Origin: an uncultured Candidatus Saccharibacteria bacterium
GTDB taxonomy: Bacteria; Patescibacteriota; Minisyncoccia; Phycocordibacterales; UBA5272
Reading direction: 5' to 3'
Assembly: GCA_964621595.1 (NCBI GenBank)
Contig: CAZUPO010000001.1
Coordinates: forward strand, 14,758-78,757
Length of the DNA stretch: 64,000 nt
A program made the translations under genes and the position numbers. Shown in pieces: positions 3,201 to 56,452 of the stretch; the stretch's first letter is position 1, and every line of letters begins with the position of its first letter. The notes beneath the pieces were generated by a model. The model was not told where the DNA came from, did no database searches, and saw nothing but the letters and a program-made list of their open reading frames with translations.

Positions 3201-3235
3201 CTACCCATTCTGCTTTCTCCATTCGTAGAGTGTTA
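3201..3235. repeat. Direct repeat copy 2 (native 3' end of rlmB)
   Basis: Overlaps the rlmB stop codon and last codons; pairs with 2499-2533. Confidence 0.7.
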
Positions 3236-3947
3236 CAGCAATTGCATTAGACGCGTTCAGCGACTCACATAAGCCGTTAATAGGTATCGAGAGTTTGAAA
3301 TCACAATGTTCAAGAGTTTTGTGTGCTATCCCCTGACCTTCACTGCCAACGACTATAACAGTATTTTCATCAAAAACAGTCTCTGTTAGACGTGAATCAC
3401 CTCCCCCCGTTAAGCCGTATACCCAGAAACCTTTTTCTTTAAGAGATAAAAGGGTGTTGTTAACATTACTCACTGAAATTATTGGTATAGAAAAAATGGC
3501 ACCAGAGGATGCTTTGGCAACGACACTCGTTATTTGTGCCTGATTATGTTCTGGCATAATAACTGCATCAACACCAAAGGCCAGACAACTTCTCATGATT
3601 GCACCGACGTTGTGCGGATCTTCAAGATGATCTAGAACAACAATGATCTTTTTACCTTCCTTTTCTTCTGCTAAAACCTCGGGAAGAGTCTGATACAAAC
3701 TACCCCCATCGATCAATACCGCCACCCCCTGATGAACAGCACCCCTCCCAACATGATGTTCCAATTCTTCTTCTGTAACAATGCTGTACGTGAGACGATT
3801 AGACTGAATTGTACTCATGATGAAAGAGTCTTTTTCCCCAGCTCGTGTGAGATACACTTTTTGAATAGGAACACGGGCACCTCGTACACGCGCTTTAAAT
3901 AATTCTTCGACCGTATTTTTACCGTAGATATATAATCCCTGTGACAT
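3201..3947 (-). CDS. rlmB: 23S rRNA (guanosine-2'-O)-methyltransferase RlmB / SpoU-TrmH family
   Basis: N-terminal L30e-like substrate domain plus C-terminal SPOUT motifs (VVLDHLEDPHNVGAIMRS, VYGLTGGG, ESLNASNA). Confidence 0.85.
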   Translation of the reverse strand: MSQGLYIYGKNTVEELFKARVRGARVPIQKVYLTRAGEKDSFIMSTIQSNRLTYSIVTEEELEHHVGRGAVHQGVAVLIDGGSLYQTLPEVLAEEKEGKKIIVVLDHLEDPHNVGAIMRSCLAFGVDAVIMPEHNQAQITSVVAKASSGAIFSIPIISVSNVNNTLLSLKEKGFWVYGLTGGGDSRLTETVFDENTVIVVGSEGQGIAHKTLEHCDFKLSIPINGLCESLNASNAIAVTLYEWRKQNG

Positions 3948-4004
3948 ACTAGACAGTATAGCACAAATATTGTGATATAAAAATGCGGGACCTTTACTAC
4001 TATC

Positions 4005-4563: not shown

Positions 4564-7500
4564 CTATTTAACGGTGACAGAATCGCGTACTACATAAGTA
4601 CCACGACAAGTGAGTGTATATGTTTTTCCGGTGACACTACTATAGAGACCGACATCTTCTGATCCAGTAGTATTCTTACCATTAGACCACGCGCCACTTG
4701 CCATACAAGACTTTAGATTCTCACCAGTCCAGGACAGAATAACTCTTCGTTTTCCATCTACCATTTTTGTGGAGTAGTTTAATGTAACAGCAGGATTCTT
4801 GTTTGTGTCTTTTGTTAACACAGTCTCAACAGCAGAAGAAATTGATTTTACCGGTGAGGCAATTGCGCCAAGTGCTTTATCTTTTAGAGCAGTGGCGGCA
4901 CGAACACCGTAATTCTTTGTGTCAAAACGAATTTCGCGAGATATCTCCCCGCCTGGTCCTCCACAGGTTAGTTTGAATCCTTGGGTTCCACCAACCTTAT
5001 CGACAGCATATGAACCTGATGTTTCCTGTGCACCGGACCATGAACCTGACGCCTTACACCAAAGTGCGTTCGTCGTTTCCCAGAGGAGTGACACTGGCTT
5101 TCCATATTGAATGATGTGAGGAGTTGCTACAAAGGAAAGTGTTGGCGGTGGAGAGTCTGAGAAATTAACCTCAACAAAACTTGAGATAGATCCCCCGTCG
5201 CCGGTACACGAGAGTACATAGTTTTTACTTCCTGTTATTGGTTGCGTAGTAAAGGTACCCGCAACATTCTTTACACCGTCCCAATCACCAGAAGCATCAC
5301 AAGATGAAACGTTTTCCGCTTTCCAAACAAGAGTAATTGGTTTATTTGGCGTAATCTTACTCTCCTGCATAGAGAATCGTAATTTTGGCTGTGGGGGCGG
5401 GTTCGTAGAAACAACCTCACGTCTAGGAGATCTAATTGTTTGAATAACAATGACTGGTTGCTCAGCGTTTATTGTTATAGGTAATGGTACAGATGGATCA
5501 CGATCGGGTATCACATTTTGTTGAGTAATTGTTTGTCGTACAGTCTCCAATATCTGAGGCACCGCAACTGTCTGTTCTTGTGCTACCGTTGCAACCGAAG
5601 TTGTATTCGAAACCGCTTCTCCTGAGGTAGTAACTGCGGCTGTAGAGAAAGTTTCTGCTGGTACAACCTGTGGAGCAACTGAAATACCGACCGATTGAGT
5701 TATTTCGCCTCCATCACCTGTACACGTAAGAAGATATGATTTGTCACTGGTGAGTGAATTTACTTGCTGTTCTCCTGCAAGACCTCTATTTACCGTCACC
5801 CAATCACCCCCAGAACTATAACACTCTGTTGCATTTCTTGCCCTCCATGAAAGAGTTGCTGTGCCACCATAAGAAACCGCATTCTCAGATGAACTAAAAG
5901 TAAGCGTCGGTGGTACTTTTCTAATTATTTCTACAGCCGTTACAGCTGGTGCCTGGTTTACAGTAATAATAGCTGACTGACTAGCCTTTCCACCGGGGCC
6001 CGTGCATTCAATTGTATATGTTGTATTTGCGCGCGGAGACACTGTTTGTGTATCAGATGTCGATGTTTTATCTGTCCATGGAGCACTACACGCCGTTGTG
6101 TTAGTGGAAGACCACGTGAGTATACTAGATTGCCCTTCAGTAATAGTTGTCTGTGATGAATCCAAACTCACTTGTGGTAATGGTTTAGTTTCTGCAACTA
6201 CCTGTGGAGCAGAAACAGTTACGGTAATTGCCTGCTCACCCCTTCCCCCTTCTCCAGTACACGAAATTCTATACGTGGTAGTTGTAGATGGCGAAACTGT
6301 CTCTGATCCAGATATAGCCGAATTATTTCCCCATGATGACGTACACGTCGTCGCGTTAGTAGAACTCCAAGATAACCTTGTGCTTTGCCCTTGGGTAAGG
6401 GTCGAGGGAGACGCATCGAGTGTGACCGTTGCTGGTTGAGCAACTTGGACTACCGGGGCTGGACCTACAGCGATATTTACAGAATCTCGTGCTTCTCCAC
6501 CAACTCCTGAACAAGTAATTGTAAATACAGAACTTTCAGTAAGTGGAGGTGTTGTAAAAGAGGAAACAGTGGCAACTGGACCCGTTCTCCATGAACCTGT
6601 ACATGAATCCGCGGCTGTGGAAGACCAGTTAAGCACCGTTGCTGTGTTGTATGTTAGATTATTTGATCTTGAAGTCAATGAAACTGTTGGTACAGGTGGA
6701 GGCGGTGCCACAGTGATGGTGATAGATTTTTTTGTTTCTTGTCCGGCAGCATTATAACAACTAATAGTGAATCTTTTATCTTGGACCAATCTAGGAAGAT
6801 CTTCTTGGCCCGATAGTGACTTATTACCAGACCAATCGTCACTTGCTACACATCGTGTAGCGTTCCCGGAGGACCAATACAGGGTTGCTGGTGAATTATA
6901 TGGGAGACTATTTCCCGAAGAAGAAAAATCTATTGTTGCTACTGGCGTTGTACATGTGCTTGCAGTATTCACCCAACTCCCCCAGACAGGCTGACCATAT
7001 GAATCGGGACATGTACTCGTGCGCGTCTGGGTTACAGTACCATTCTGACCCGTTGGACATGAGATGGTCTGCTGTTCTGAAGATGTTCTACATGTGGGAG
7101 TTGGGGTAACGCATGTGTTTGTAGTATTCACCCAACCGCCCCAGACAGGCTGACCGTATGGATCAGGGCATGTACTCGTACGTGTCTGTGTTATAGAGCC
7201 TGTTTGCCCAGTTGGACAAGACACAGTCTGGTTTTCTGACGATGTCCTGCACGTGGGAGTTGCTGGTGCGTCGTTCATGGTCACAAACGCAGACTCTTCT
7301 GGTAACCATGTCCCCACAGGATTTACGTTATAACAACTAAGCACAAAGAATGGTTTTGTAAACGTACTTTTTGCAGGAAGATTTCTAATGACTTCTGTTC
7401 CACTTACTGGTTTGTACCCGGAAGACCATAATCCAACTGGGACACTTCTTCCGTAACAACTATTCCCCTGAAAGACACCAACATTTTTTGCATCCCAAGA

Positions 7501-10775: not shown

Positions 10776-11129
10776 GTGGAAACCAGCGAAATGAAGGTAT
10801 ACCCGTTTGGACTGATGTTCCAGATCGCCGTGAGCGCCCTGCCGGCAATGAGGCGGCTCATTTGCTTGCATGTCTATGGCGGGGTTCAAACTACCACCAT
10901 TCGGTCGCAAACAGGGCTCTCGAGGAAGTTCCGCCTGCGCGTTGGAGAGAAAATTCAGGACCTCCCGGTTCCTCTACCCAGAAGCGAAGAGGTGCCCGAA
11001 CTCTCGTCCAGGGAGGTACGAAAATTGCTTGAGGACCTCGGCATCACGCCCAAGAAGTTGTCGGAAATGTTCAACATCCCCGAGGAGATCCTGAAGGAGA
11101 TGTGCCCACCCCAGCCTCCACTACAATGA
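10776..11129 (+). CDS. Hypothetical protein, GC-rich cassette B (GTG start)
   Basis: GGAAGGA RBS 5 nt before GTG at 10776; extended -10 TGTTATAAT at 10734-10742; high GC; no family recognised. Confidence 0.45.
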   Translation: METSEMKVYPFGLMFQIAVSALPAMRRLICLHVYGGVQTTTIRSQTGLSRKFRLRVGEKIQDLPVPLPRSEEVPELSSREVRKLLEDLGITPKKLSEMFNIPEEILKEMCPPQPPLQ

Positions 11130-14682: not shown

Positions 14683-15171
14683 ATGAAAGTGCTCCAAAAA
14701 CTCGTCGACGTGGTGTGGAACCACGTCATGCAGTCCATCTTCACCCTCTTCCTCTTCAGCGCCATGGGCTTCATTACCAAGTACTCCTACAAGAGCCTCC
14801 TCCAGGAAACCGGGGTGAGCGGCCTCATCCTCCCCCTCGTGATCCTCACCTTCATCGCCACCCTCTTCTTCTGGGGGATGTGCCAGAAGGAGCCCTTCCT
14901 GCGGCTGAAGTCCCCCTGGATGTTCTTCGGGAATGGCGTTGGCGCCCTAGCGATGCTCATCATCATCATCGCGTGGATGGCCCTCGCGTGGACCATGTCG
15001 GAAGGCCTGGGCTGGTACTTCAGCCCCGAAGACGCCCACTATCTGATCCACGGGTCGGTTAACATCTCCGGCTTGGCGATGATCGGCTGCGCGGCGCTGT
15101 ACTTCTTCGATGTCGGGGTGGCGGACTGGATCCGCCAACGGCTCGAGAAGTTCCGCTTCATCAAGAAGTAA
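14683..15171 (+). CDS. Hypothetical polytopic membrane protein (~4 TM), GC-rich cassette C
   Basis: AAAAGGAACCGCC RBS; hydrophobic segments; high GC. Confidence 0.5.
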   Translation: MKVLQKLVDVVWNHVMQSIFTLFLFSAMGFITKYSYKSLLQETGVSGLILPLVILTFIATLFFWGMCQKEPFLRLKSPWMFFGNGVGALAMLIIIIAWMALAWTMSEGLGWYFSPEDAHYLIHGSVNISGLAMIGCAALYFFDVGVADWIRQRLEKFRFIKK

Positions 15172-15398: not shown

Positions 15399-15881
15399 AT
15401 GACCACCGAATACCGCACTCTCGAACCGAACGTGTTCACCCCCGTCGACGCGACGTTCATCACCAACAACCCGAACCTCCCCTTCAACTGGCTGATCCCG
15501 GGCATCGACGACATCCTCATGAACCTCGAGATCTGGCAGATCGGCCTGGTCATCCTCGCCTTCATCATGCTGAACTTCATCAACCGGCTGCGCGATCGCA
15601 TCAAGCAGCACGAGCAGTGGAAGTCGCAAGCCGCGCCGGAAATCGTCGCGAAGTACGCGGCGGAGAACACTCCGGCCGCGTGCGTGAAGAAGGTCATCGC
15701 CTTCTTCCGCGAGTACAAGTTCGGCGCGGCGTTCAAGCGCGTCGTGATGGTGGTCGGCGGCACGATCTGCGCCGCCATCATCATGTACTTCTTCGCCGGC
15801 ACCGCCGGCGCCTTCTGGGCCGCCGCAAGCGCCCTCGGCATGTTGTACCAAGCGACGAAAAAAAAGGAGGTGACGGACTAG
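15399..15881 (+). CDS. Hypothetical membrane protein (2-3 TM), GC-rich cassette D
   Basis: High GC; hydrophobic helices; own promoter and terminator. Confidence 0.5.
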   Translation: MTTEYRTLEPNVFTPVDATFITNNPNLPFNWLIPGIDDILMNLEIWQIGLVILAFIMLNFINRLRDRIKQHEQWKSQAAPEIVAKYAAENTPAACVKKVIAFFREYKFGAAFKRVVMVVGGTICAAIIMYFFAGTAGAFWAAASALGMLYQATKKKEVTD

Positions 15882-22064: not shown

Positions 22065-22253
22065 CTACTTCTTCTTCAGTCTCCGATTGCGAGGTACCAC
22101 TTCCACTTTGCGGCTGCTACGCACATCCGGCGGGCACTCGCGATGGATCCTCTGGAGTGCCGCCAGGTGGCGCGGCCCAACCACGAGGCGCGCACCCTCC
22201 GCCATCTCCTCCATGTGCCTGGCGGCATCGTTCTCGGGGTTACGCGTTGCCAT
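22065..22253 (-). CDS. Small hypothetical protein E2 (62 aa), GC-rich, overlapping the E1 stop
   Basis: Start lies 11 nt upstream of the E1 stop (possible translational coupling); stop at 22065, just before the terminator. Confidence 0.35.
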   Translation of the reverse strand: MATRNPENDAARHMEEMAEGARLVVGPRHLAALQRIHRECPPDVRSSRKVEVVPRNRRLKKK

Positions 22254-22767
22254 GACGACCCCGCCTTCTGGACTTCATCACCCCCTTCGGCCTCACGCGG
22301 GTCTTGCGACGCTTCGTGGGCTTGAGACCCTCCTTGCTCTTCATGACGCCGTTGATCAGGCGCTTCAACTTCCGGAGGCAGATCTTCTCCTCGTCCGAGA
22401 GGTTGGACGGGTAGGGCAAGATGGGCTTGCTCGCAATGAGGTTGCGCACGAGGCCACGCTGCATTTCCCGCGAGTGAGCCATCACCTTCAACCAGATCTC
22501 GCGCGCAAGTTCCCACGAAAGACCCAGACGTTCGAAGATGCTCTCCATCGCCAAACCTTGAGCGACTTCGCCTTCCGGGTCGAAAACGCTCAGGCGGTGA
22601 ACCCACCTCCTGTAGCCGACACCCTGTGTCGACCGAGAGCGTTCGCGCAAGAGGATCGCGAGCATGATGTCGATCACCTTGGTGCGTTCGCGGTACGGCC
22701 TGAACAACGGCTCCATCATGCGCTCCTGTGAGAGCCTGGCGCGTTCCTTGATACTTTCCGTAGTCAT
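22240..22767 (-). CDS. Hypothetical protein E1 with a Lys/Arg-rich C-terminal tail, GC-rich cassette E
   Basis: GGGAGG RBS 5 nt before ATG at 22767; high GC; the three frames all carry long spurious ORFs, so gene-level confidence is moderate. Confidence 0.45.
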   Translation of the reverse strand: MTTESIKERARLSQERMMEPLFRPYRERTKVIDIMLAILLRERSRSTQGVGYRRWVHRLSVFDPEGEVAQGLAMESIFERLGLSWELAREIWLKVMAHSREMQRGLVRNLIASKPILPYPSNLSDEEKICLRKLKRLINGVMKSKEGLKPTKRRKTRVRPKGVMKSRRRGRHGNA

Positions 22768-22926
22768 CTGTCCTCCCGGACGATTATAATGCGTTGTTGG
22801 GTTTGTGCTGCTTCCACGCAGTACTCTATCAAAAAATACCCACTTTGTTAAACGCACACTCTCCAAGAGGTAAACCCATGCGACCTTATCATGCATCTGC
22901 TATACTTTAGAAACTTACAATTTTCC

Positions 22927-24441: not shown

Positions 24442-24756
24442 ATGTTCACGCACTCCTCGTTTTTGCTTTCTCTGCTGTGCGTCTTGGCATGGCTCACCCT
24501 GGGACTCCTGAGTGTCCTGGTGCACTTCCAAGATTTGCACTTCCGCGAGGAGGTGCTCGATGACCTCGACGGAAGCAACGGCCCGGTGGCGTTCGTATCC
24601 GGGTGGATAGCGGGCGTGATCTACGTCTGCATCATCGGCGGGTTTTATGCCATTGCCCACATCGTGGAGAAGATCAAAGCCGGTCTCCAGGCAATCAAGG
24701 AGACCCTGCAACTCTACTACGAGTTGCTCTTCCCTGACGACGATGCCGAGGCCTGA
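24442..24756 (+). CDS. Small hypothetical membrane protein (2 TM), GC-rich cassette F
   Basis: Two hydrophobic helices and an acidic C-terminus; high GC. Confidence 0.45.
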   Translation: MFTHSSFLLSLLCVLAWLTLGLLSVLVHFQDLHFREEVLDDLDGSNGPVAFVSGWIAGVIYVCIIGGFYAIAHIVEKIKAGLQAIKETLQLYYELLFPDDDAEA

Positions 24757-27166: not shown

Positions 27167-27517
27167 ATGGGGAAACGTCAGTACAGCCATGAGGACGCCC
27201 TCCTCGCGGTGCGTTTCGCAGTGTGGTACGCAGCCGCACGCGAGAGTTGGAAAAAAGGTGAACCTCACCCGATCCGGCTCACCCGCAAGTTCGCAGAGGA
27301 TAAGGATATTCTGGCCCGACATATGGGTCATGATTCCTACCGAGCGATGCCTGCCGATACGAAAAGTTTGATCGGTATGGCTGCTGCCAAGATGAAGAAG
27401 CAAAAGAAGGAGTTGAGAGATGGCGCCCGTAATGATCTCGACCCCTTCGAACTCGTCCTTCGCGACGTCATCGCTGACCTCACGAAGGGCGAGCAGATCA
27501 ACGCCGTACCGAAATAA
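27167..27517 (+). CDS. Hypothetical protein G1 (116 aa), GC-rich
   Basis: High GC; operon with G2 (11-nt gap, RBS GGAGACCC). Confidence 0.45.
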   Translation: MGKRQYSHEDALLAVRFAVWYAAARESWKKGEPHPIRLTRKFAEDKDILARHMGHDSYRAMPADTKSLIGMAAAKMKKQKKELRDGARNDLDPFELVLRDVIADLTKGEQINAVPK

Positions 27518-27528
27518 GGAGACCCATC

Positions 27529-27774
27529 ATGTCGGACCCCGACACTTTGAAGGAAATCGAGACGACACTTGCGGGGGTGATCAACCCCAACACGGTCGTT
27601 GCGATCATGAGCGAATTCCTCGGCATCACCAAGGAACAGCTCGAGAAGAATCACGACGGCTCGACCCCGTGGGTGCGCCAAGAAGTGCTGAAGGTCGCAT
27701 CCAAGAAGAACTCCGCTGATCGAACGCACATGCTGGCGAAAATCCAGCAGATCATCGCAGAGAACTCGCGATGA
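27529..27774 (+). CDS. Hypothetical protein G2 (81 aa), GC-rich
   Basis: Immediately downstream of G1; followed by a strong terminator. Confidence 0.45.
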   Translation: MSDPDTLKEIETTLAGVINPNTVVAIMSEFLGITKEQLEKNHDGSTPWVRQEVLKVASKKNSADRTHMLAKIQQIIAENSR

Positions 27775-33733: not shown

Positions 33734-33982
33734 TCACGGCGCCTCCATTGTGCAGACCATCGGGTCGGCGTTGATCGCGTCGCACAGCGCCTGCAAGTGC
33801 CGACGCAACTGCCGCGGGGTCATCTCCTCCACCGGGTCGGTGAGCAACTCGTGTTTTCCGTCCAGAGTTGCCAGCACCTCACTGGCTTTCTCGATCTCGG
33901 AGAGGAGATTACTGCGCTCCACTTCCGGTGACGCGTGTCCGCAGGGTTTCGCGGTGTACGGCATGATTCTCCTTTCTGCCAC
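33734..33982 (-). CDS. Hypothetical protein H2 (82 aa), GC-rich
   Basis: Second gene of a two-gene GC-rich operon; RBS AAGGAG. Confidence 0.45.
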   Translation of the reverse strand: MAERRIMPYTAKPCGHASPEVERSNLLSEIEKASEVLATLDGKHELLTDPVEEMTPRQLRRHLQALCDAINADPMVCTMEAP

Positions 33983-33992
33983 AAGGGCAAGT

Positions 33993-34241
33993 TTACGTAG
34001 TCAAGGTTTGGATTGTCTTCTGCAAGTCCGCTTGGTACTTCTCGAGGGCCTTCACGAACTCGAGATCACCTACCGGCTTGCGTCCGTCATTCCACTTTGC
34101 CAGATGATTGTCGATATCATCTGAGCCCCGGAGAAGTTTGTGCTTCGGGTCGAGTTTGCGCAACTCACCTTCGGCACCAGCAACCATCTCGGATAGTTGG
34201 TTGAGTGCAACCATAGCCTCCCGTTTTACTAGGGTGTTCAT
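33993..34241 (-). CDS. Hypothetical protein H1 (82 aa), GC-rich
   Basis: First gene; RBS GAGGGGAGACGGAGC; coiled-coil-like. Confidence 0.45.
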   Translation of the reverse strand: MNTLVKREAMVALNQLSEMVAGAEGELRKLDPKHKLLRGSDDIDNHLAKWNDGRKPVGDLEFVKALEKYQADLQKTIQTLTT

Positions 34242-35397: not shown

Positions 35398-35510
35398 ATT
35401 ACTCCCCGGATCTATGTATATAAACTATGTGAGTTTGTATGCATATATGTGGGGAGAAATACCCCACAAAAATTGTCTTTTCACCACCAACCAAAGTCAG
35501 GAGATTACCC

Positions 35511-36278
35511 ATGTGCACAGTCAATGATGGTAGTTCGTTCTTCCGGCCGATGACCATGATGGACATCGCCTTCATTGCCACCAAGTACAACGAGTTGCCG
35601 AGGCAATTGCTGTACGACCTCTACGAGGCAATGACGGATCACAACACGGTCCGGCCGGCGGTTATGCTGGTGATCCTCGAGAGCCTTCACCGGCTCAAGA
35701 GCGGTCATCTGGGTGCCAGCGCCTACGGTGCCGTCTTCGCCTACAGCGCCCTTCAGATCAAGGATGGTGGTGATGGCAACATCTTCCACCGGTACCAGGA
35801 TCCGATCATGTCGCACATCCACGACGCGATGCTTCAATTCGCTCTCGCGGAACGCAACATGCGCAAGGTTCAGGAAGTCCTCCGTCGCTATCAGTACGAC
35901 TTCGTCCACTTTTGCGATTGCGGCTGCATAACCACTGTGGTCGACGTCGATTTCATGGAGACGGAGGAGTACAAGGCGGTGAACCTCATCCGCTCCTATG
36001 GCGAATCGATTGGGGCGCCGGTGCACCAGGTGAAATCGATCGACGATCTCCCCCTTCACCTGACCGACATGCATCCGCACGAGGTCGCCGGTTACAAGAA
36101 GATCTGGGGCACCCTGCAGATGCTCCCCGTCCATCCCTTCGAGGGTACGCTGGAACTCTCGCAGGCATTCGAATACTTGACCAGCATGAAGGAGGGTAGC
36201 AATGCCGGTAGCGGCCGTCGTTCGTGTATCAACGCAGTGGGGGCCAAGACACCGGTTGCAGATCACGCTGCCCGATAA
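35511..36278 (+). CDS. Hypothetical protein I1 (255 aa), GC-rich cassette
   Basis: AGGAG RBS 8 nt before ATG at 35511, where GC rises; the 35439 start in the ORF track lacks an RBS. Confidence 0.45.
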   Translation: MCTVNDGSSFFRPMTMMDIAFIATKYNELPRQLLYDLYEAMTDHNTVRPAVMLVILESLHRLKSGHLGASAYGAVFAYSALQIKDGGDGNIFHRYQDPIMSHIHDAMLQFALAERNMRKVQEVLRRYQYDFVHFCDCGCITTVVDVDFMETEEYKAVNLIRSYGESIGAPVHQVKSIDDLPLHLTDMHPHEVAGYKKIWGTLQMLPVHPFEGTLELSQAFEYLTSMKEGSNAGSGRRSCINAVGAKTPVADHAAR

Positions 36279-36501
36279 CGATGTGGTTAACGTACGCCTC
36301 CATGCGTGCGAAGACTGCAGCTTCATCGAGTGGAGTAAAGCAACCGGAAAAGAGGTTGCTCAGACAACCGTAAGTGAAGCATTCCTCCGGGCTGTGGCGA
36401 ATTTGGTCACCTCCGGAGAAAACCGAAAACTCCCTGAACTTGTCGCCGAAGGGCAGCAAGCACTTGGAGATTACGCCAAGAACCCGCCCTTCAACACATA
36501 G
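36202..36501 (+). CDS. Hypothetical protein I2 (99 aa), GC-rich, overlapping the I1 3' end out of frame
   Basis: 77-nt overlap with I1; followed by a weak terminator at 36519-36550. Confidence 0.35.
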   Translation: MPVAAVVRVSTQWGPRHRLQITLPDNDVVNVRLHACEDCSFIEWSKATGKEVAQTTVSEAFLRAVANLVTSGENRKLPELVAEGQQALGDYAKNPPFNT

Positions 36502-40695: not shown

Positions 40696-41061
40696 CTAGG
40701 GCTGGACGGTCGTCGCCTTGAAGAGGTCGAATTCGTCGTCACCCAGCGGGTTGTTGTAGTCCGGCATGAAGTCCATGTCGCGACGCGCATCCACGGAACT
40801 ATCGTGAGTGCGGAAGTCGCAGTCGTCACCGAAGGTGATGCCGGGATCACCGTTGGCGGCAGCCCCTTCGCAGATGTGCCGCTGGAGTTCCTCCGCCTTG
40901 GGAGTCATGACGCGGAGCACCTTCATGCCACCCATCCGACCACGCTGCACCTTGGTGATGCCGAAACCCGTGGCCGTGTTCCTCAGGTACTTGATGAGCC
41001 GCTCCACCTCCACGGAGGTGTCGTAGCCGGTGTAGACATCCAAGCAGTACGATTCTTGCAA
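40696..41061 (-). CDS. Hypothetical protein J, GC-rich cassette (probable TTG start)
   Basis: AAGGAG RBS 7 nt before TTG at 41061, where GC rises; the alternative ATG at 41121 lacks an RBS. Confidence 0.4.
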   Translation of the reverse strand: MQESYCLDVYTGYDTSVEVERLIKYLRNTATGFGITKVQRGRMGGMKVLRVMTPKAEELQRHICEGAAANGDPGITFGDDCDFRTHDSSVDARRDMDFMPDYNNPLGDDEFDLFKATTVQP

Positions 41062-41184
41062 GGCAATTCTCCTTTTCAAAATTACTCTATTAAGGGAAGG
41101 GTTGTACCCGTCTTGTAACATACTACAATATGAAAATAATTCTGTCTAGTTGCTGGTCGAATCGAACTAAAAATTCTTGGAACA

Positions 41185-43251: not shown

Positions 43252-43381
43252 TTCGGATGCCAGGAACTCAGCTCAAGTTGGGTTGATATGGACAAAGTAT
43301 AAAAAATATTGTAGTGTACTTTTTAGCGGGTCACTCTTCCCCAACCAATTAAGAGGATCATTCCACCTATGAGGAGGCTCT

Positions 43382-43981
43382 ATGCCCGCACTCGATCGAC
43401 AAGAAGGATACTTGGTAGCGCACGAAACCCTGCTGGCCGAACTCAAGGCCATGTGGGCAGATCCCAAGGTCCAGCTCTACAACGATGCGGAGCTTCCCGC
43501 GTTCAGCGATACCGCCGTGTTCCTGGCCGGGCCGACGTCGCGCAACCAGATCCTGGAATGCCAGTGGCGTGCCAAAGCGGTCGCGTTTCTGCGCAAATAC
43601 GGCTTCGAAGGATGGATCTACTGCCCGGAACCGCGGGGATTCGAAGCTCCCGGCGATTTCACCGAACGGGGCTACATCCACCGCTGGGAATCCAGTCGGC
43701 TCTTCACGCCCACCACGTGTGCTGAGTACGCCGTGTTCTGGATCCCGCGCAAGGCCGACGAACTGCTCGGGCTCAACACGAACCTCGAGCTCGGCATCAT
43801 GATCGGCAAGTGCATGATGCGAAACGATTACGAGCGGAGGAAGCTCTTCGTCGGTTGGCCGGACAGCGCGGAGCGCATGGGACTCCCGAACCATTACATG
43901 GGCGAGATCGTCCTCGAGCGGTACACCGCGCTTGACACAATCTGCGCCGACCTGGCCGCATCCGTCAGGAATCGCCGTTAG
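43382..43981 (+). CDS. Nucleoside 2-deoxyribosyltransferase / DNPH1(Rcl)-like protein, GC-rich cassette K
   Basis: AVFLAGPTSRN (cf. YFCGSIRGG) and NTNLELGIMIGK (cf. S.GVGYELG, catalytic Glu); RBS AGGAGG. Confidence 0.5.
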   Translation: MPALDRQEGYLVAHETLLAELKAMWADPKVQLYNDAELPAFSDTAVFLAGPTSRNQILECQWRAKAVAFLRKYGFEGWIYCPEPRGFEAPGDFTERGYIHRWESSRLFTPTTCAEYAVFWIPRKADELLGLNTNLELGIMIGKCMMRNDYERRKLFVGWPDSAERMGLPNHYMGEIVLERYTALDTICADLAASVRNRR

Positions 43982-50364: not shown

Positions 50365-50823
50365 CTACTTCTTCTTTGATTTCTTTATTGCAGGATACGA
50401 AAAATCTTTTCGGAACGATACTCCGTGTGGCATGTACCCAAGAGATTTATAAAATGTATGAAGCCATTCCTTGCTGGTGTGAAGACTAGACTTGTAGTGA
50501 CCTCCCTCTTCTGTAATTTGATTTATTTTGTCCATAATTGCTCTTCCTACACCTCCACCTCGATACGCCTCGTCAACAAGAAGTCCTTCGAATATAGCGT
50601 ACGGACGACCGTCATGCTTCTTGCGATCAACACCAGGATCATGAACACCTGTTATCACCATCCCCCAACCAAATTCCTTCTTTGTTTTCTTATCGACCGC
50701 AACAACAATCTTTGGAATAAGCGGTTTACCACGGACAACTTTAAGTGTGTAGGAACTATTCTTAGATGCTCCAGAAACTTTTGCAGGAACTTTTTTTGTA
50801 GCGTTTGCTTTTTTAGTTGCCAT
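50365..50823 (-). CDS. GNAT-family acetyltransferase
   Basis: LLVDEAYRGGGVGRAIM motif; start taken at MATKK. Confidence 0.7.
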   Translation of the reverse strand: MATKKANATKKVPAKVSGASKNSSYTLKVVRGKPLIPKIVVAVDKKTKKEFGWGMVITGVHDPGVDRKKHDGRPYAIFEGLLVDEAYRGGGVGRAIMDKINQITEEGGHYKSSLHTSKEWLHTFYKSLGYMPHGVSFRKDFSYPAIKKSKKK

Positions 50824-50890
50824 GGTGATTATTATTGTATGAGTATGGTGTAAGCGTACCACTTAGGCTAGAGTGGTGTCAAAATGACAT

Positions 50891-50915
50891 AGGAAAAGCC
50901 GCGCGTGGGCGCGGC
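50891..50915 (-). terminator. Intrinsic terminator for L1 (GCCGCGC-GTGG-GCGCGGC, T-run on the minus strand)
   Basis: Sits inside a 46-bp segment identical to 51382-51427. Confidence 0.65.
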
Positions 50916-50938
50916 GTCTTCCAACCAGCGGGTGATGA

Positions 50939-51283
50939 TCATTGCTGCGGGCGCGGTGGACCGATGAAGGGACTCCACTTCAACACCCCGCCGAAGGGCT
51001 CCTCCTCGCGAGCGACAACTTCAGTGCGTTCGAGGTCTTCGAGAACCTTCAGCACCTCTTCGTCGGTACATGGGCTGTAGCCCCATTCCATCAACTGACG
51101 ACCGATAGCGACGACTATCTGCCCGGTGCGCAAGGGCCCACCTTGCTCGAGGACCTCATACCTGACCATTCGGGCGAGTATCCCTAAACGCCGCTTCCCC
51201 TGCTCACGGATCCTGAGAATCTCGACCCCTCCGTAGAGAAGGGCTATGAACAGAACGGGCCAGAAATCCTGGATGACTTGCAT
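50939..51283 (-). CDS. Small membrane-anchored protein L1 (N-terminal TM plus C-terminal wHTH-like), GC-rich
   Basis: Promoter TTGACT-17-TAGTAT; 5'UTR motif TATTCCAA; RBS GGAGGAGG. Confidence 0.5.
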   Translation of the reverse strand: MQVIQDFWPVLFIALLYGGVEILRIREQGKRRLGILARMVRYEVLEQGGPLRTGQIVVAIGRQLMEWGYSPCTDEEVLKVLEDLERTEVVAREEEPFGGVLKWSPFIGPPRPQQ

Positions 51284-51384
51284 GACACACCTCCTCCAAT
51301 TGGAATATATTCATACTAGAATAGAGGTGAGGCGAAGTCAAATACTTTCAAATAATTTAGATAGTATAAAAATAAAATTACCAT

Positions 51385-51409
51385 AGGAAAAGCCGCGCGT
51401 GGGCGCGGC
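51385..51409 (-). terminator. Intrinsic terminator for L2 (identical to the L1 terminator)
   Basis: Same hairpin within the 46-bp perfect repeat. Confidence 0.65.
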
Positions 51410-51433
51410 GTCTTCCAACCAGCGGGTAAAGGG

Positions 51434-51799
51434 TTACGACGAGAGTGGCTCCCATATGTAACTCTCACCCTCCTTCTTCCGAATCACCCTCCCTTCTCGG
51501 TGCAGTTTCTCGAGAATGGTCATCACCCTTTCTTCGGATACGGGTGGTCTGAACGGGATGCTCCAGTAGTCATTGACGATGCTAGTAACCCCCACGACGT
51601 TTCCCCTACCGATCATAGGAAGTCCCCGAGTTTCGATGAACAACTCGAGCGTTTTCTCGCTCGTCTTCTTCCAAGTCAATTTGAGGTAAGCATGTTCCAC
51701 GAGCCACCGCAGGAAAGGAAACAGGCAGATCAATAACAACAACCAGGCAATCCAGTGTTGATACTTCTCCAAGATCGTGGTAACCATGGAGAGTTGCAT
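51434..51799 (-). CDS. Small membrane-anchored protein L2 (paralogous architecture)
   Basis: Promoter TTGACC-17-TATAAT; TATTCCAA motif; RBS GGAGGAGG. Confidence 0.5.
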   Translation of the reverse strand: MQLSMVTTILEKYQHWIAWLLLLICLFPFLRWLVEHAYLKLTWKKTSEKTLELFIETRGLPMIGRGNVVGVTSIVNDYWSIPFRPPVSEERVMTILEKLHREGRVIRKKEGESYIWEPLSS

Positions 51800-51896
51800 G
51801 ACACCTCCTCCTTACTAGGTTGGAATAATTTAATTATACAATAAAAAAATATTTTGGTCAATTCATCTTACAGCATTGAAATATAAAAATTTCCAT

Positions 51897-51924
51897 AGGA
51901 AAAGCCGCGTGTACAAACGCGGCT
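51897..51924 (-). terminator. Intrinsic terminator for L3 (AGCCGCG…CGCGGCT)
   Basis: Degenerate version of the L1/L2 terminator. Confidence 0.6.
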
Positions 51925-51946
51925 GATCCAACAGCGAGTGAGACCG

Positions 51947-52282
51947 CTACGCAGGGGTGATTTTCCACCCCACGACTGCCCTGGTCGGTACCCATACCTG
52001 GGCAACGTTACCTAGGCGTTTACGCTCAGAGAGAATGCTGAGCACCTCTTCTTGGGTAAAGCGATCTCCGTTGTCGATGAAGCCCTCATGCCACTTCATC
52101 GCGTAATCGTTAACCTGCATGAGAATTTCGTCGATCGAGGCGGGATCATTGGAGAGGTGCTGGTTGAGCAACCCCTCCAGGTATTTCCTCCTCTGTTCGA
52201 TATTCTTGCGCACAAGGAAATCTATACCCCGTGCAAAGCAGACAATCGCCAGTATGGCGATTGCAAATACGGTCATTTTCAT
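51947..52282 (-). CDS. Small membrane-anchored protein L3 (paralogous architecture)
   Basis: Promoter TTGACC-17-TATAAT; TATTCCAA motif; RBS GGAGGAGGG. Confidence 0.5.
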   Translation of the reverse strand: MKMTVFAIAILAIVCFARGIDFLVRKNIEQRRKYLEGLLNQHLSNDPASIDEILMQVNDYAMKWHEGFIDNGDRFTQEEVLSILSERKRLGNVAQVWVPTRAVVGWKITPA

Positions 52283-52344
52283 TGTAACAAACCCTCCTCC
52301 GTTGGAATACCGTTATTATACAACAAAAAATGTTCTGGGTCAAT

Positions 52345-52755
52345 CTACTGTCCTTGAGATCGCATTTGAGGTAAGCCATCACGTAACTGTAATGTTTCCG
52401 CTGTGATACTTCCATCACTATTTTGCGTGCCCATAATGACAACAGATGATCCGGTCTTCACATCACTTTTTACACCAGTGACTGACTTCAATACTTTGGT
52501 GGTATCTGTGACAACGATTACCTTGCTTCCACCATCACGCCCCTTGAGAGTTAACATTTGATTGTCGAAAGAAATGACTTCTCCTTGAGTTACTCCCCCT
52601 CCTCCGAAACCCCTTGAAGCACGTTGTCCCCCTTGAAACTGCCGTGGAGAATCAGAAGAAGATTTCTTCATTCCAGCATAATATCCTAGACCAGAAAAAA
52701 TAACTGCGGTAATAATGAGTGAACTGTATATTTGTTTTTTCGAATGTATAAACAT
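52345..52755 (-). CDS. Hypothetical membrane-anchored Gly/Ser-rich protein (last gene of the ABC efflux operon)
   Basis: N-terminal TM; AT-rich. Confidence 0.5.
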   Translation of the reverse strand: MFIHSKKQIYSSLIITAVIFSGLGYYAGMKKSSSDSPRQFQGGQRASRGFGGGGVTQGEVISFDNQMLTLKGRDGGSKVIVVTDTTKVLKSVTGVKSDVKTGSSVVIMGTQNSDGSITAETLQLRDGLPQMRSQGQ

Positions 52756-52790
52756 AGTTGTATATCTACGTGTGTAATTAGTTAGTAACC

Positions 52791-54014
52791 CTACTCATGC
52801 CGCAGGGCATCAATTGGGTTAAGAGCAGATGCTTGTCGTGCGGGGTAGTAGCCAAAGACAACTCCAATAGCAGCAGAAACGCTAAATGATAAGAGAATGG
52901 ATGAAAGAGAGGTTGAAGTTGCTATATTCATGAGACTACTTACCAAAAAAGAAATAATACTTCCTAAGACTATTCCTATCGCACCACCAACGAATGTAAG
53001 CATGAGAGCTTCAAGAAGAAACTGGAGTCGAATATCTTTATTCTTTGCTCCGATTGCCTTTCGAAGGCCAATCTCTCGTGTGCGTTCTGTTACTGTGGTA
53101 AGCATCATATTCATAATCCCTATACCACCAACAAGGAGAGAAATGCTCGCGACCGCACCGAGAAACACGGTGAAGGTTGTCGTGACACTTGTTGCCGTTG
53201 CGACGATGTCCGATTGATTAAGTACACTAAAATCAGCTTGTAATGGATTTGTTATCTTGTGGCGAGAGAGAAGTAACGCTGTCACATCGTTTTGCAATGT
53301 TACCATTGCATCCTGAGAGTTTGCAGAGATACTGATTGTGTTTACATACTCACTCCCCGCCAAGTAGCGAGACATAGTTGAGAGTGGAATAATGATTCTG
53401 TCGTCTTGGTTGTTAAAACCTGTCCCCCCTTTTGCTTTTGTAATACCTATCACGGTAAAGACGAGCCCGTTAATACGTACTGTTTGACCAAGAGGATCAT
53501 TCCCTTCTCCGAAAAGATCAATTGCGGTGGTGGGTCCAAGAACTGCGACTCTCGAGAGGCTGCGCTCATGGGTGTCTGTGATAAACGACCCTGTATCGAC
53601 TTCGATGTTTCGTACCATCGCATAATCAGAAAGAGTGCCAATTACTTGTGTATTGGTATTTTTCCCTTTAGTTGCAACCTGGTACCGCTTTGTTATATCA
53701 GGTGCTATAGCCTGGATATTTTGCACACTTTCTTTGATGGCAAGAGCATCGTCGAGAGTCAGCGTCTGCGCACTACCACGGCCTTGATTTAACCCACCGC
53801 CAAAACTACGCTGATTACCAGGCATAACCATGATGAGGTTAGAGCCGATTGACTGTATGTTGCTCTGAATAGATTGAGATGCCCCCTGTCCAATCGAGAT
53901 AAGCGCAATTACAGATCCTATACCGATCACAATACCAAGCATGGTAAGTCCGCTTCGAATTTTATTCGCGGTAATGGAAATATATGTTTCGTGAAGTAAA
54001 TCTTTGGTGGTCAT
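52791..54014 (-). CDS. ABC transporter permease, FtsX/MacB-like
   Basis: N-terminal TM, large periplasmic domain, three C-terminal TMs. Confidence 0.85.
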   Translation of the reverse strand: MTTKDLLHETYISITANKIRSGLTMLGIVIGIGSVIALISIGQGASQSIQSNIQSIGSNLIMVMPGNQRSFGGGLNQGRGSAQTLTLDDALAIKESVQNIQAIAPDITKRYQVATKGKNTNTQVIGTLSDYAMVRNIEVDTGSFITDTHERSLSRVAVLGPTTAIDLFGEGNDPLGQTVRINGLVFTVIGITKAKGGTGFNNQDDRIIIPLSTMSRYLAGSEYVNTISISANSQDAMVTLQNDVTALLLSRHKITNPLQADFSVLNQSDIVATATSVTTTFTVFLGAVASISLLVGGIGIMNMMLTTVTERTREIGLRKAIGAKNKDIRLQFLLEALMLTFVGGAIGIVLGSIISFLVSSLMNIATSTSLSSILLSFSVSAAIGVVFGYYPARQASALNPIDALRHE

Positions 54015-54727
54015 ACGTGGTGATGTTCGCCATGTCGAACGACACTATGATTCTTTTTATCGGATATAATCTCGCCATCTTTAATATGAATAATACGATC
54101 TGCGTAAGAAGCCACGTCTGGCTCGTGAGTGATGAGTATAATTGTACCCCCTTGCTCTTTATTTATTGCTTGAAAAGTACTGAGTACAATTTGTCCAGTT
54201 TTTGTATCGAGATTCCCTGTTGGTTCATCTGCCAAAATGATACTAGGATTGTTAACAAGAGCACGCGCGATTGCAACACGCTGAATTTGTCCACCGGAAA
54301 GTTGATTTGATAAATGGTAGTAGCGAGATTCATCCAGACCTGCTTTCTGTAGAGCTTCTCGGGCTAGGTGTTCACGTTTCTCTTCTTGTATGTCGGTATA
54401 CAATAGCGGCAACATAACATTACGAAGTACCGTCGTTCTTGGAAGTAAGTTAAACGCCTGAAATACAAACCCTATCTTTGTTTTTCGAATGTCAGCGAGC
54501 GCGTCGTCTGAAAGTTTTGAAACATCGTGACCATCGAGTACGTATGTACCACTTGATGGTGTATCGAGTGCTCCCAAAATATGCATCATGGTAGATTTTC
54601 CTGATCCAGATGGCCCCATAATTGCAACGAACTCACCATCTTGTATTGTGAAAGAAACGTTTTTTAAAACTTTTGTTTCTGTATCACCATTTATATATGT
54701 TTTTGTAATGTTCTTAATTTCTATCAT
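54011..54727 (-). CDS. ABC transporter ATP-binding protein (MacB/LolD-like)
   Basis: Walker A GPSGSGKST, signature LSGGQIQRVAIARAL, Walker B ILADEPTGNLD. Confidence 0.9.
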   Translation of the reverse strand: MIEIKNITKTYINGDTETKVLKNVSFTIQDGEFVAIMGPSGSGKSTMMHILGALDTPSSGTYVLDGHDVSKLSDDALADIRKTKIGFVFQAFNLLPRTTVLRNVMLPLLYTDIQEEKREHLAREALQKAGLDESRYYHLSNQLSGGQIQRVAIARALVNNPSIILADEPTGNLDTKTGQIVLSTFQAINKEQGGTIILITHEPDVASYADRIIHIKDGEIISDKKNHSVVRHGEHHHV

Positions 54728-54730
54728 TGT

Positions 54731-56452
54731 TTATCGTCCAGTCGTCGCGCGAACAGCGCCACCACCTTGGTTACGAGAAGAACCTAGAAGTGAGAAGCCT
54801 GTTTGCTGTGTTTGGGCAGTAGTGGTTTGTGATATTGTTCTAGAAACAACCCAATCACCCTCCTCGAGACCGGAAATAATTTCTGTTACTGAATCGTTGG
54901 AAATACCTACTATAACAGATTTTCTGGTAGGAGATGTTGGGAGCTTAACCCCAGAAGTTGCATTAGTAAATGTTTGAGAAGAATCTCCGGCAGTATCCAC
55001 ATATGAAGTTGTTCCTTGGTGTTTAACTGCTTGATTAGAAACAACGAGTACATCTGGATGAATGTCAGTGATGATGTTTGCGTTCACACTCATCCCTGGT
55101 TTGATAACCTCTTCATCTGTATCGAATGCAACTTTTACATTATAGGTAACAACTCCTTGTGACACGGTACCGAGCGGACTCACTTCACTTACCGTACCAG
55201 CAAGTGTTAGATCTTCTATCGCATCAAAGGTGAGTGTGACTTTTTGGCCTAGTTTAATTTTCGTTGCATCAACTTCGTTAAGGGAGAGGTCGGCGAACTT
55301 GTTAGCTGTAATAAGTGTCACGGCACTACTTCCGGAACTGGCGCTATCACCAATCTTTACGCCAATGGCGCCTACAACTGCATCAAACGGTGCACGGATA
55401 ATTGTATTTGCATAATTCTGTTGTGCAGATAAATAATTTGCCTCCGCGCTCACAAGTTGTGCTTTTGCAATTGTTAGATCATCTTCTGTTGGTGGAGCAA
55501 CTTTGAGCGTATACGAGAGATTATTTTGTGCGAGTGTGGTGGAGGCGGCATCGATAGACTGTCCTGCTGTGATTGTACTAGAAATGAGCGAACTGACTGA
55601 GGATCGCGCCGTAGAAACTGTATTTTTGTAACTATCAATCGAGGTTGATTGAGTACCATTAAGGACAGAACTGATTGCGTCGAGGTATTGTGCTACTTGA
55701 TTAAGTCTATCTGTTGTCTTGGTTAAGTCGGTGGAAAGAGATGAATCAACGGTGAGTGTATTTAGATCATTTTTCCAAAGTGGCAACATCGCGACAATTG
55801 CAGAACGACTTGTCTCGATTTGTGATTGAACATTCTGATTGTTAAGAGGTAGTCCTGTTATAGAAAATGTTGGTGAGAGTGTGTTGGGGTTTAAGAAAAA
55901 ACTAGCCGTCTTGGTGTACACAACATCAGAGGCTTGAATATACGCGTCCTGCATCTTTGCTATAGCGTTTTGTTTTGCAGAAATAAGAGAAAGTTTGCTC
56001 GAATCTACTGCAGACTTACTAGCAAGAATCGTTTCCTCTGTAGCCCCACTTTCTGTCTTCTTATATGTTGCTTTTGCACTTTCGTAAGAAGCCTCTGCTT
56101 GTTTAAGGGAAATGAGTGCTGAACGAGAATCAAGTGAGACAAGGATTTGACCTCGTTGCACCTTTTGACCAACTGTTATTGGTATATACGTAACTGTACC
56201 ACTTGTTTGTGGCTTTAGGTCAATCTGATTTTTGACAACAACCTGACCAGTAGAAGACAGGCTGGCAATAACTGTTTCTCTTTTTACCTGTTCGAGACCA
56301 TAGAGAGTATTGTTTGAACCAACAAGAAGTGATCCGCCATAATACACTGCAACAAAGGTAACCACCACGCCACCTAGAGACCTGTACGGGTGAATGCGTA
56401 TATATTCCTTGCTTTTGTTGTAGATAGATATAATGTGATCTCGTGTGAACAT
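54731..56452 (-). CDS. HlyD/MacA-family periplasmic adaptor (long coiled coil)
   Basis: N-terminal TM, extended coiled coil, beta-barrel-type C-terminal region. Confidence 0.75.
   Translation of the reverse strand: MFTRDHIISIYNKSKEYIRIHPYRSLGGVVVTFVAVYYGGSLLVGSNNTLYGLEQVKRETVIASLSSTGQVVVKNQIDLKPQTSGTVTYIPITVGQKVQRGQILVSLDSRSALISLKQAEASYESAKATYKKTESGATEETILASKSAVDSSKLSLISAKQNAIAKMQDAYIQASDVVYTKTASFFLNPNTLSPTFSITGLPLNNQNVQSQIETSRSAIVAMLPLWKNDLNTLTVDSSLSTDLTKTTDRLNQVAQYLDAISSVLNGTQSTSIDSYKNTVSTARSSVSSLISSTITAGQSIDAASTTLAQNNLSYTLKVAPPTEDDLTIAKAQLVSAEANYLSAQQNYANTIIRAPFDAVVGAIGVKIGDSASSGSSAVTLITANKFADLSLNEVDATKIKLGQKVTLTFDAIEDLTLAGTVSEVSPLGTVSQGVVTYNVKVAFDTDEEVIKPGMSVNANIITDIHPDVLVVSNQAVKHQGTTSYVDTAGDSSQTFTNATSGVKLPTSPTRKSVIVGISNDSVTEIISGLEEGDWVVSRTISQTTTAQTQQTGFSLLGSSRNQGGGAVRATTGR

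Follow-up and report, generated by a model that had tools for sequence, protein, structure and literature searches.

What kind of locus keeps its noncoding scaffold more faithfully than the genes that it carries? The question is raised by a small array on the minus strand of a 64,000-nucleotide stretch of a Candidatus Saccharibacteria chromosome (contig CAZUPO010000001.1, positions 14,758 to 78,757; hereafter the window), where three consecutive units, in the order U3, U2, and U1, occupy window positions 50881-52344. Each unit runs from a sigma-70-like promoter through a leader box, a Shine-Dalgarno (SD) sequence, an open reading frame (ORF), and a 3′ box to a G+C hairpin terminator. The units are 70-74% identical in their 5′ untranslated regions (UTRs) and 75-90% identical in their 3′ UTRs, whereas the proteins share only 23-26% pairwise identity, so that the first-pass annotation, which had judged the DNA scaffold to be more conserved than its cargo, is borne out. 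We read the locus as one self-contained, horizontally acquired expression module that was triplicated in tandem and is restricted to its lineage, a reading to which we give a probability of roughly 0.4. We further propose, as tentatively or a shade more so and on computational grounds, that the conserved noncoding boxes may act at the RNA level, through a closure between the 5′ and 3′ UTRs like that of the icaR mRNA.

Architecture of the three units

The promoters of U3 (52315..52343) and U2 (51833..51861) each consist of TTGACC, a 17-nt spacer, and TATAAT; they match the consensus at 11/12 positions and are the two best sigma-70 matches within the 10 kb scanned, whereas the U1 promoter (51313..51341), with TTGACT, a 17-nt spacer, and TAGTAT, is weaker (9/12). 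All three are very A+T-rich, and the −35 element of U3 begins 1 nt past the stop codon of an upstream gene for a 136-aa protein. The octamer TATTCCAA sits exactly 5 nt downstream of the −10 element in every unit (52302-52309 in U3, 51820-51827 in U2, and 51300-51307 in U1); given the usual spacing between −10 and +1, transcription therefore likely starts at the second base of the octamer, which in U3 is the A at 52308. Nine further copies of TATTCCAA in the window all lie within coding sequence, with no promoter or SD sequence near them. The leader of U3 (52292..52309) continues with the SD sequence GGAGGAGGG (52292-52300), that of U2 (51804..51827) with an 8-nt insert, CCTAGTAA, and the SD sequence GGAGGAGG (51804-51811), and that of U1 (51290..51307) with TT and GGAGGAGG (51290-51297). 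GGAGGAGG stands 4-9 nt ahead of each ATG, and the predicted transcription start is separated from the ORF by about 23-27 nt.

The ORFs themselves (U3, 51947..52282, 111 aa; U2, 51434..51799, 121 aa; U1, 50939..51283, 114 aa) have a G+C content at third codon positions (GC3) of 0.65, 0.68, and 0.70, respectively, against 0.29-0.45 in ordinary window genes, and show coding periodicity across the three codon positions (GC1, GC2, and GC3). Between stop codon and terminator lie 22-24 nt, filled by the conserved stretch C(A)C(C/T)CGCTG(G)TTGGA..., and it is here that the 3′ boxes are found, namely CGGTCTCACTCGCTGTTGGATC in U3 (51925..51946), CCCTTTACCCGCTGGTTGGAAGAC in U2 (51410..51433), and TCATCACCCGCTGGTTGGAAGAC in U1 (50916..50938). 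The terminator hairpins, with stems of 7-8 bp, all G+C, read GCCGCGC-CCAC-GCGCGGC followed by TTTTCCTATG in both U2 (51382..51409) and U1 (50888..50915), and AGCCGCGT-TTGTAC-ACGCGGCT followed by TTTCCTATGG in U3 (51893..51924). The stem is kept in U3 by a two-sided change, in which GCCGCGC/GCGCGGC becomes GCCGCGT/ACGCGGC (C-G to U-A).

The U1 and U2 trailers are identical over exactly 46 nt (50888-50933 and 51382-51427), a segment that encloses both terminators, and the U3 trailer (51887-51939) is a 64% identical version of it. The exact 42-mer taken from this segment occurs twice in the window and not once in 100 shuffles. Three tandem modules of promoter, UTR, small protein, and terminator, with a common regulatory grammar and a 46-bp trailer that is identical in two units and degenerate in the third, are what the first-pass annotation had described, and each of these elements was recovered where expected on the minus strand, including the TTGAC(C/T)-17-TA(T/G)(A/T)AT promoter pattern, the leader box, and the ribosome-binding site in all three units. 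Nor did the 46-mer and the UTR motif turn out to be widespread elements attached to unrelated proteins, the outcome against which that annotation had warned: the exact 28-mer core of the terminator has no match in 185,579 species genomes. A degenerate trailer pattern matched 96 times in metagenomes, all of the matches being unrelated generic terminators without the module architecture; 82 of the 96 share one identical matched sequence and apparently represent one recurrent locus, largely in human-gut assemblies. The leader pattern, which matched at least 120 times in viral contigs, was set aside as too unspecific.

Two similarities of the trailers and one of the flanking sequence are recorded here in their own right. 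In Rfam, the U3 trailer (51897-51961, minus strand) gives a sub-threshold match to the Rhodobacter small RNA SorX (22.5 bits, E = 0.015) and the U2 trailer (51383-51464, minus strand) one to SorY (20.1 bits), both far below gathering; the likeness consists of a CUG(U)UGGA motif directly ahead of a G+C terminator hairpin and U-tract. Further, an exact 13-nt direct repeat, GCTTACCTCAAAT on the minus strand, is found at 51679-51691, inside the U2 ORF in another reading frame, and at 52364-52376, where it precedes the stop codon of the upstream 136-aa gene by 19 nt. It may be a chance match or a recombination scar, with ∼0.05 such matches expected by chance in the region.

The encoded proteins and their distribution

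All three proteins carry the C-terminal motif (T/S)xEEV(L/M)xIL..L.R.G.V....W, with 12 invariant columns, and their Smith-Waterman z-scores against shuffled sequences are 7.6 (U1-U3), 5.6 (U1-U2), and 2.2 (U2-U3). Together, the motif and the z-scores indicate that the proteins are real but old paralogues rather than unrelated cargo, in keeping with the diversified paralogous family that had been suggested from the sequence. Each contains one hydrophobic 19-residue segment near its N terminus (residues 6-24 in U3, 16-34 in U2, and 7-25 in U1; hydropathy 1.7-2.3), taken as a transmembrane (TM) helix, with 0-1 positive charges ahead of it and 4-5 in the 15 residues that follow. By the positive-inside rule, this charge bias points to an N-out/C-in anchor and a cytoplasmic C-terminal domain.

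For U1, an AlphaFold2 model built on the three-sequence alignment of U1-U3 comprises a helix at residues 8-47, a short strand at 51-52, helices at 53-66 and 74-86, and strands at 90-94 and 101-105 that form a β-hairpin (90-105); its predicted local distance difference test score (pLDDT) averages 75 and reaches 76-88 over residues 31-110. The model has the winged-helix topology H1-(β1)-H2-H3-β2-β3, a three-helix core with a β-hairpin wing, and the top Foldseek matches among PDB and viral models are all winged-helix proteins (BlaI, MarR, Fur, PadR, YceH, and Z-alpha/Z-beta), with modest E-values of 2e-3 to 4e-2; the best structural matches are 1sd4 (BlaI), 2gxg (MarR-like), 9ire (Fur), 5h20 (PadR), and 1xmk (Z-beta). 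Hydropathy, model, and structural matches thus agree with the N-terminal TM helix and winged-helix C-terminal segment that the first-pass annotation had sketched. The predicted topology is that of winged-helix repressors (BlaI/MecI, MarR, PadR, and Fur) and of Z-alpha, and the spacing from H3 to the wing, xxEEVLxILxxLxRxGxV, resembles that of BlaI. The U proteins differ from these repressors, however, in that (i) their Pfam and NCBIfam scores all fall below cutoff, (ii) the N-terminal membrane anchor runs straight into H1, (iii) H3 begins with acidic residues, and (iv) a second domain for dimerization or ligand binding is absent. The acidic start is a conserved T/S-x-E-E at the recognition position, the U1 wing is likewise acidic (AREEEP), and the isoelectric points (pI) of the C-terminal domains are 5.5, 9.1, and 7.0; the acidic H3 start and these pI values do not favor classical operator binding.

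The proteins are thus predicted to be single-pass membrane proteins that hold a small cytoplasmic winged helix close to the membrane, and they could perhaps serve as adaptors or regulators, tethered to the membrane, with a protein or a nucleic acid as binding partner at its inner face. The p16.7 protein of phage phi29 has about 110-130 aa, an N-terminal TM helix, a helical linker, and a small cytoplasmic C-terminal helical binding domain, which is homeodomain-like and not a winged helix. This layout is similar to that of the U proteins; no sequence or structural match between them was obtained. A foreign composition together with strong promoters of their own, amplification in tandem, and rapid divergence is typical of accessory conflict genes, so that the proteins may have an accessory conflict-type role (exclusion, immunity, or defense), a tentative reading to which PADLOC and PHROGs lend no support.

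A word-indexed search of 5.8 billion proteins returned U1-U3 themselves and nothing else, and an exhaustive hidden Markov model (HMM) search of 1.84 billion protein representatives found only the U1-U3 genes and fragments of them; the sole non-self match of the latter, a 3431-aa repetitive protein, was judged spurious. No match above threshold was found for any of the three in Pfam, NCBIfam, PHROGs, or PDB sequences. Below gathering, U2 scored 17.2 against 22.6 bits and 17.1 against 22.8 bits with the Pfam winged-helix families Penicillinase_R (BlaI/MecI) and BLACT_WH, which U1 and U3 did not match. The anti-phage defense models of PADLOC gave nothing better than E = 0.046, and no further paralogue was found elsewhere in the window. 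Environmental copies (in JGI and ENA assemblies and in an NCBI contig of 209,725 bp) are all at least 99.6% identical to the window and thus clonal, leaving no population or cross-species variation to exploit. One variant contig (L311; JGI 3300045394, 1570 bp) carries the U2-U1 region twice, in inverted orientation and with the junction at the U1 stop codon, and yields a 119-aa read-through variant and a T87I substitution; we rejected it as most likely an assembly artifact. At the level of sequence, these searches show an orphan family, lineage-restricted to the three genes of the array.

Predicted closure of the mRNA and competing explanations

In each unit, the leader box is complementary to the 3′ box, with UUCCAA(CC/UU/CG) facing (GG/UG)UUGGA(A), and the complementarity extends into the SD sequence; in U1, it also takes in the start codon, and in U2, the unit-specific leader insert UAAGG faces an equally unit-specific trailer segment, CCUUUA. 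Three positions of the core helix are not Watson-Crick pairs, and all three are G-U on the sense RNA. Duplexes between each leader and its own 3′ box have predicted energies of −18.6, −22.0, and −19.3 kcal/mol, against −12 ± 3 for shuffled boxes (p = 0.03, 0.002, and 0.03), and of the six ways to assign leaders to 3′ boxes, the cognate one scores best. When the whole predicted mRNAs (411-441 nt) are folded to minimum free energy, 11, 11, and 19 leader nucleotides in U3, U2, and U1, respectively, pair with the 3′ box about 370-410 nt away, and in U1 the SD sequence and the start codon lie inside this pairing; base pairs were read from predicted folds, and the transcript ends were predicted from sequence. 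Composition-matched shuffled leaders equal or beat the observed pairing in 10%, 2%, and 0% of trials (p = 0.10, 0.02, and <0.01), and in six other stand-alone modules of the window, 0, 0, 6, 0, 7, and 0 leader nucleotides pair with the 3′ end. Since U3 has a leader box and no upstream unit, and U1 has a 3′ box and no downstream unit, pairing within one mRNA is favored over pairing between neighbors.

A 3′ UTR that controls translation in this manner is known from the icaR mRNA of Staphylococcus aureus, in which a C-rich motif of the 3′ UTR is the complement of that mRNA's own SD region (Ruiz de los Mozos et al. 2013, PMC3868564). In the U units, too, a 3′ UTR motif is complementary to the SD region of its own message, a pairing that is favored in the full-length fold and predicted to block ribosome binding. 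Unlike in icaR, however, (i) the 3′ UTR has only about 50 nt and its box abuts the terminator, (ii) the pairing takes in a leader box at the 5′ end, (iii) the design is common to three paralogous mRNAs, and (iv) it is known here from computation only. Each unit is predicted to form an independent transcription unit, whose short leader begins at (T)ATTCCAA downstream of a near-consensus sigma-70-type promoter. On the closure model, ribosomes would load while the mRNA was still being made. Once the trailer had been transcribed, the 3′ box, consisting of a C-rich stretch and GGUUGGA directly 5′ of the terminator stem, would pair with the leader box and the SD sequence, closing the mRNA into a panhandle and masking the ribosome-binding site, so that translation would be mainly cotranscriptional. 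The duplex could also protect the RNA ends from exonucleases or form an RNase III site, and the net effect of closure would be a tight dosing of a small membrane protein.

Several observations weigh against closure and against the wider interpretation of the locus. Both the transcription start sites and the 3′ ends are predictions, and the pairing signal is partly compositional, with a G-rich SD sequence set against a C-rich trailer and a shuffle control that reaches only p = 0.10 in U3. In a fold of the 3′ UTR by itself, GGAAGA and the UUUUCC tail form an extended terminator stem of −24 kcal/mol, so that part of the conservation of the 3′ box is explained by termination alone. Where U1 and U2 are identical over exactly 46 nt, the adjoining coding sequence cannot be aligned, a pattern that suggests a recent gene conversion more than it does selection; the three units do not count as independent observations; and one organism with three paralogues, in copies at least 99.6% identical, offers no independent covariation. 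As to the fold, the single-sequence model of U3 has low confidence (pLDDT 50), with the same helices visible. Much of this would be expected of plain tandem paralogues, in which the shared signals are generic, the 46-nt identity is a recent gene conversion tract, and the complementarity arises incidentally from the G-rich SD sequence, the C-rich trailer, and the A/G-rich left arm by which the terminator stem is lengthened. Such an account, to which we concede a good part of the probability without finding it likely, draws on the GGAAGA:UUUUCC fold just described, on the occurrence of generic TTGGAAAAGCCGCG...CGCGGCTTTTCC terminators in unrelated bacteria, and on shuffled leaders that reach at least 8 pairs with the 3′ box in 23% (U3), 6% (U2), and 49% (U1) of cases. 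It would likewise accommodate the sharp switch from 100% identity to no similarity at 50933/51427 and the mosaic nature of U2, whose promoter is like that of U3 and whose SD sequence, start, and terminator are like those of U1. It sits less well with an invariant 8-mer at a fixed 5 nt from the −10 element while spacers and flanks have diverged, with ∼20 conserved nucleotides 5′ of the terminator stem that exceed what termination needs, and with long-range pairing that beats 90-100% of composition-matched shuffles and is absent from all six comparable modules.

The remaining explanations fare worse. If the boxes were DNA operators, the winged-helix proteins would bind TTCCAA/TTGGAA sites at the +1 position and 3′ end of every unit, repressing their own and each other's transcription, possibly by looping. 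The predicted fold, a box at the predicted start site (the classical position for a repressor), the return of this 6-7 bp site, inverted, where each unit ends, and the inclusion of the U1 box in a perfect palindrome of 10 bp, TCCAATTGGA, are all compatible with this; the palindrome, however, is found in U1 only, the tether leaves the domain no more than about 20 residues from the membrane, H3 and the pI values do not favor it, as noted above, and another genome has a similar ATTCCAACC-N-GAGGAGG leader ahead of an unrelated gene. Leader and trailer mismatches, moreover, are G-U compatible on the sense RNA only, which favors RNA over DNA, and we regard operators as quite unlikely. Integron arrays also hold repeated, hairpin-containing noncoding elements that are better conserved than their ORFs, and with core-like motifs in hand (GTTGGAT in U3, which fits GTTRRRY, and TTCCAAC, which nearly fits RYYYAAC), the trailers could be taken as attC-like sites with inverse-core and core (TTCCAAC/GTTGGAA) and the ORFs as exchangeable cargo. 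The attC sites of integrons are 57-141 nt long, have the order R″-L″...L′-R′, and lie between promoterless, unrelated cargo genes. The U units, by contrast, carry homologous ORFs and a strong promoter each, their palindrome measures 18-22 nt, and their core-like site stands before the hairpin with the inverse-core-like site after the promoter, so that the motif order is inverted and the pair brackets the ORF rather than forming an intergenic site. Direct repeats of 8 nt or more do not flank the array, and copies of the trailer are absent elsewhere in the window and in reference genomes; the cassette-array analogy of the first-pass annotation accordingly does not hold, and an integron-like origin is very improbable.

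We give no better odds to a relic or relative of the phage immI-type C4 antisense RNA system, in which a UUCCAACC seed would pair with GGUUGGAA targets. A scan of viral contigs for GCCGCG-N-CGCGGCTTTTCCTATG gave four loci, in 4/4 of which the hairpin adjoins an Rfam C4 RNA (54-64 bits) and GGG(T)TTGG(AAG/CGA)C upstream is matched by a complementary (CTTCC/TCGCC)AACC seed in C4, motifs that were not part of the search pattern; the TTGGAAG/CTTCCAAC pair itself is present in three of the four. In the array, however, TTTTCCTATGG is followed by an A+T-rich promoter and not by a C4 stem, the spacing between target and hairpin differs (0 versus about 30 nt), unrelated gut bacteria contain similar hairpin-plus-TTTTCC(C)TATG strings, and the four viral loci are interrelated and amount to roughly one independent observation. 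No C4-like RNA (RF01695) is detectable in 50700-52500 even at E ≤ 10, nor anywhere in the window at gathering (45 bits), and membership of the array in the C4 family was rejected. Least probable of all is that the ORFs are not genes, the region being noncoding or producing RNA only: G+C-rich DNA readily gives rise to long open frames, and all three units are indeed overlapped by ORFs of 78-101 aa on the opposite strand, but the U ORFs start 4-9 nt past a perfect SD sequence and stop 22-24 nt ahead of a terminator, show coding periodicity, translate into proteins with a shared motif and a confident predicted fold, and were called as genes by independent pipelines.

The viral C4 loci (L091, 7590-7740; L092, 8910-9060; L093, 6680-6830; L094, 660-803) lie on high-G+C, prophage-like contigs, and their C4 RNAs are preceded by a GCCGCG..CGCGGCTTTTCCTATGG hairpin and by a hairpin-loop target, GGG(T)TTGG(AAG/CGA)C, whose sequence covaries with the (CTTCC/TCGCC)AAC seed in C4. 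The L091 locus has an integrase upstream of it and, downstream, an antirepressor-like gene.

Genomic neighborhood and other G+C-rich islands

Upstream of the array, on the same strand, lies a four-gene operon that encodes a HlyD-like protein (54731-56452), an ABC ATPase (54011-54727), a MacB/FtsX permease (52791-54014), and the 136-aa DUF5666-like protein (52345-52755). It is conserved in at least 76 of the 80 Patescibacteria genomes that were retrieved with the permease (56-65% identity), whereas none of these 80 related loci contains a U homologue; the U array is therefore an addition to a conserved neighborhood, in a host that belongs to the candidate phyla radiation (CPR). In MacB, the closest relative shares only about 64% identity, and the insertion boundaries of the array are for this reason not definable. 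No flanking direct repeats of at least 8 nt were found around the array. It does not lie inside a recognizable prophage: the other neighbors comprise genes for GNAT, DUF1905, M32 peptidase, and VanY proteins, enolase, and tRNA-Gln, and there are no PHROG matches. A toxin-antitoxin pairing with the GNAT gene downstream of U1 was considered and rejected, as that gene forms a separate transcription unit with its own leader and a host-like composition. As an observation apart, the operon (52345-56452, minus strand) recurs as a block across very diverse Patescibacteria, with the 136-aa partner downstream of the permease in most of the 80 loci.

The array is not alone in its composition. At least 11 further G+C-rich stand-alone islands are found in the 64 kb, with GC3 values of 0.6-0.93 in a window of 43% G+C: on the plus strand at 2630-3145, 10776-11129, 14683-15171, 15399-15881, 24442-24756, 27167-27774, 35439-36501, and 43382-43981, and on the minus strand at 22240-22896, 33734-34241, and 40696-41121. 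In most of them, one or two ORFs that match nothing significantly in Pfam lie between an A+T-rich TTGAC-17-TATAAT promoter and a strong hairpin terminator. Both of the island genes that were searched, those at 43382 and 2630, belong to Patescibacteria-wide families. The former (43382-43981) is nucleoside-deoxyribosyltransferase-like and has 72-76% identical homologues in two other Patescibacteria genomes (L312, 4001-4606; L314, 4001-4600), which have 36% and 41% G+C and in which the homologue again stands isolated, as an island with 58-59% G+C; their neighbors are unrelated, but the upstream region, with promoter and leader, and the terminator are conserved. A homologue of the 2630 gene in a 59% G+C CPR genome has a host-like composition there. 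The island at 2630-3145 is bracketed by a 34-nt direct repeat (2499-2532 and 3201-3234; 94% identical, 702 bp apart), whose right copy coincides with the 3′ end of gene 3201-3947 on the minus strand and which looks like the target duplication left by the insertion of a single-gene element without a recombinase of its own.

The following was also observed in these islands. The L312 and L314 modules adjoin a tRNA-like GGACTCGAACC string; the L312 leader (about 3975-4000) reads CATTCCAACCATGAGGAGG, with the same box-plus-SD grammar as the U units (compare window 43336-43381), and ATTGGAAGC stands ahead of the terminator of the L312 homologue (about 4620-4650). Within the window, CCAAC or CAACC is present no more than 60 nt upstream of 6/14 G+C-rich genes, compared with 1/45 ordinary genes.

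Because one island family recurs as a G+C-rich island in other Patescibacteria, the U units, too, look horizontally moving. The simplest reading is that the islands are horizontally moving, self-expressing, moron-like single-gene modules and that the U array is one such module, triplicated. Phage morons are independent transcription units that have been added to prophage genomes (Cumby, Davidson and Maxwell 2012, PMC3594210). Like a moron, each U unit places one small ORF between a predicted promoter and a predicted intrinsic terminator of its own, and its base composition is clearly unlike that of its neighbors, implying horizontal transfer, with many such units in the window and one recurring elsewhere. 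The array differs from morons in being a tandem triplicate and in residing in a CPR chromosome beside housekeeping and ABC transporter genes, with no recognizable prophage. In such a mobile module, promoter, leader, ORF, and terminator would travel together, G+C-rich relative to the host and at times duplicating the target on insertion, and a closure of leader upon trailer would let the module set its own expression level wherever it landed. That the U units belong to an undescribed population of single-gene, self-expressing mobile modules among Patescibacteria, equipped with an RNA insulator and a fast-evolving conflict cargo, is a bolder extension that we think unlikely.

In summary, the locus combines known kinds of elements, namely moron-like autonomous units, winged-helix proteins, and control between 5′ and 3′ UTRs, in an understudied lineage. 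Were neither leader-trailer closure nor mobility to hold, it would be no more than a common cluster of paralogues specific to its lineage. Small hypothetical membrane proteins abound in CPR/Patescibacteria genomes, and gene regulation and gene acquisition in these bacteria are hardly understood. A true leader-trailer closure would represent a compact, portable device for posttranscriptional control in a lineage for which none has been described. If the islands are mobile single-gene modules, they would be a chromosomal counterpart of phage morons and would provide a tractable marker of gene flow between CPR lineages that differ in base composition.

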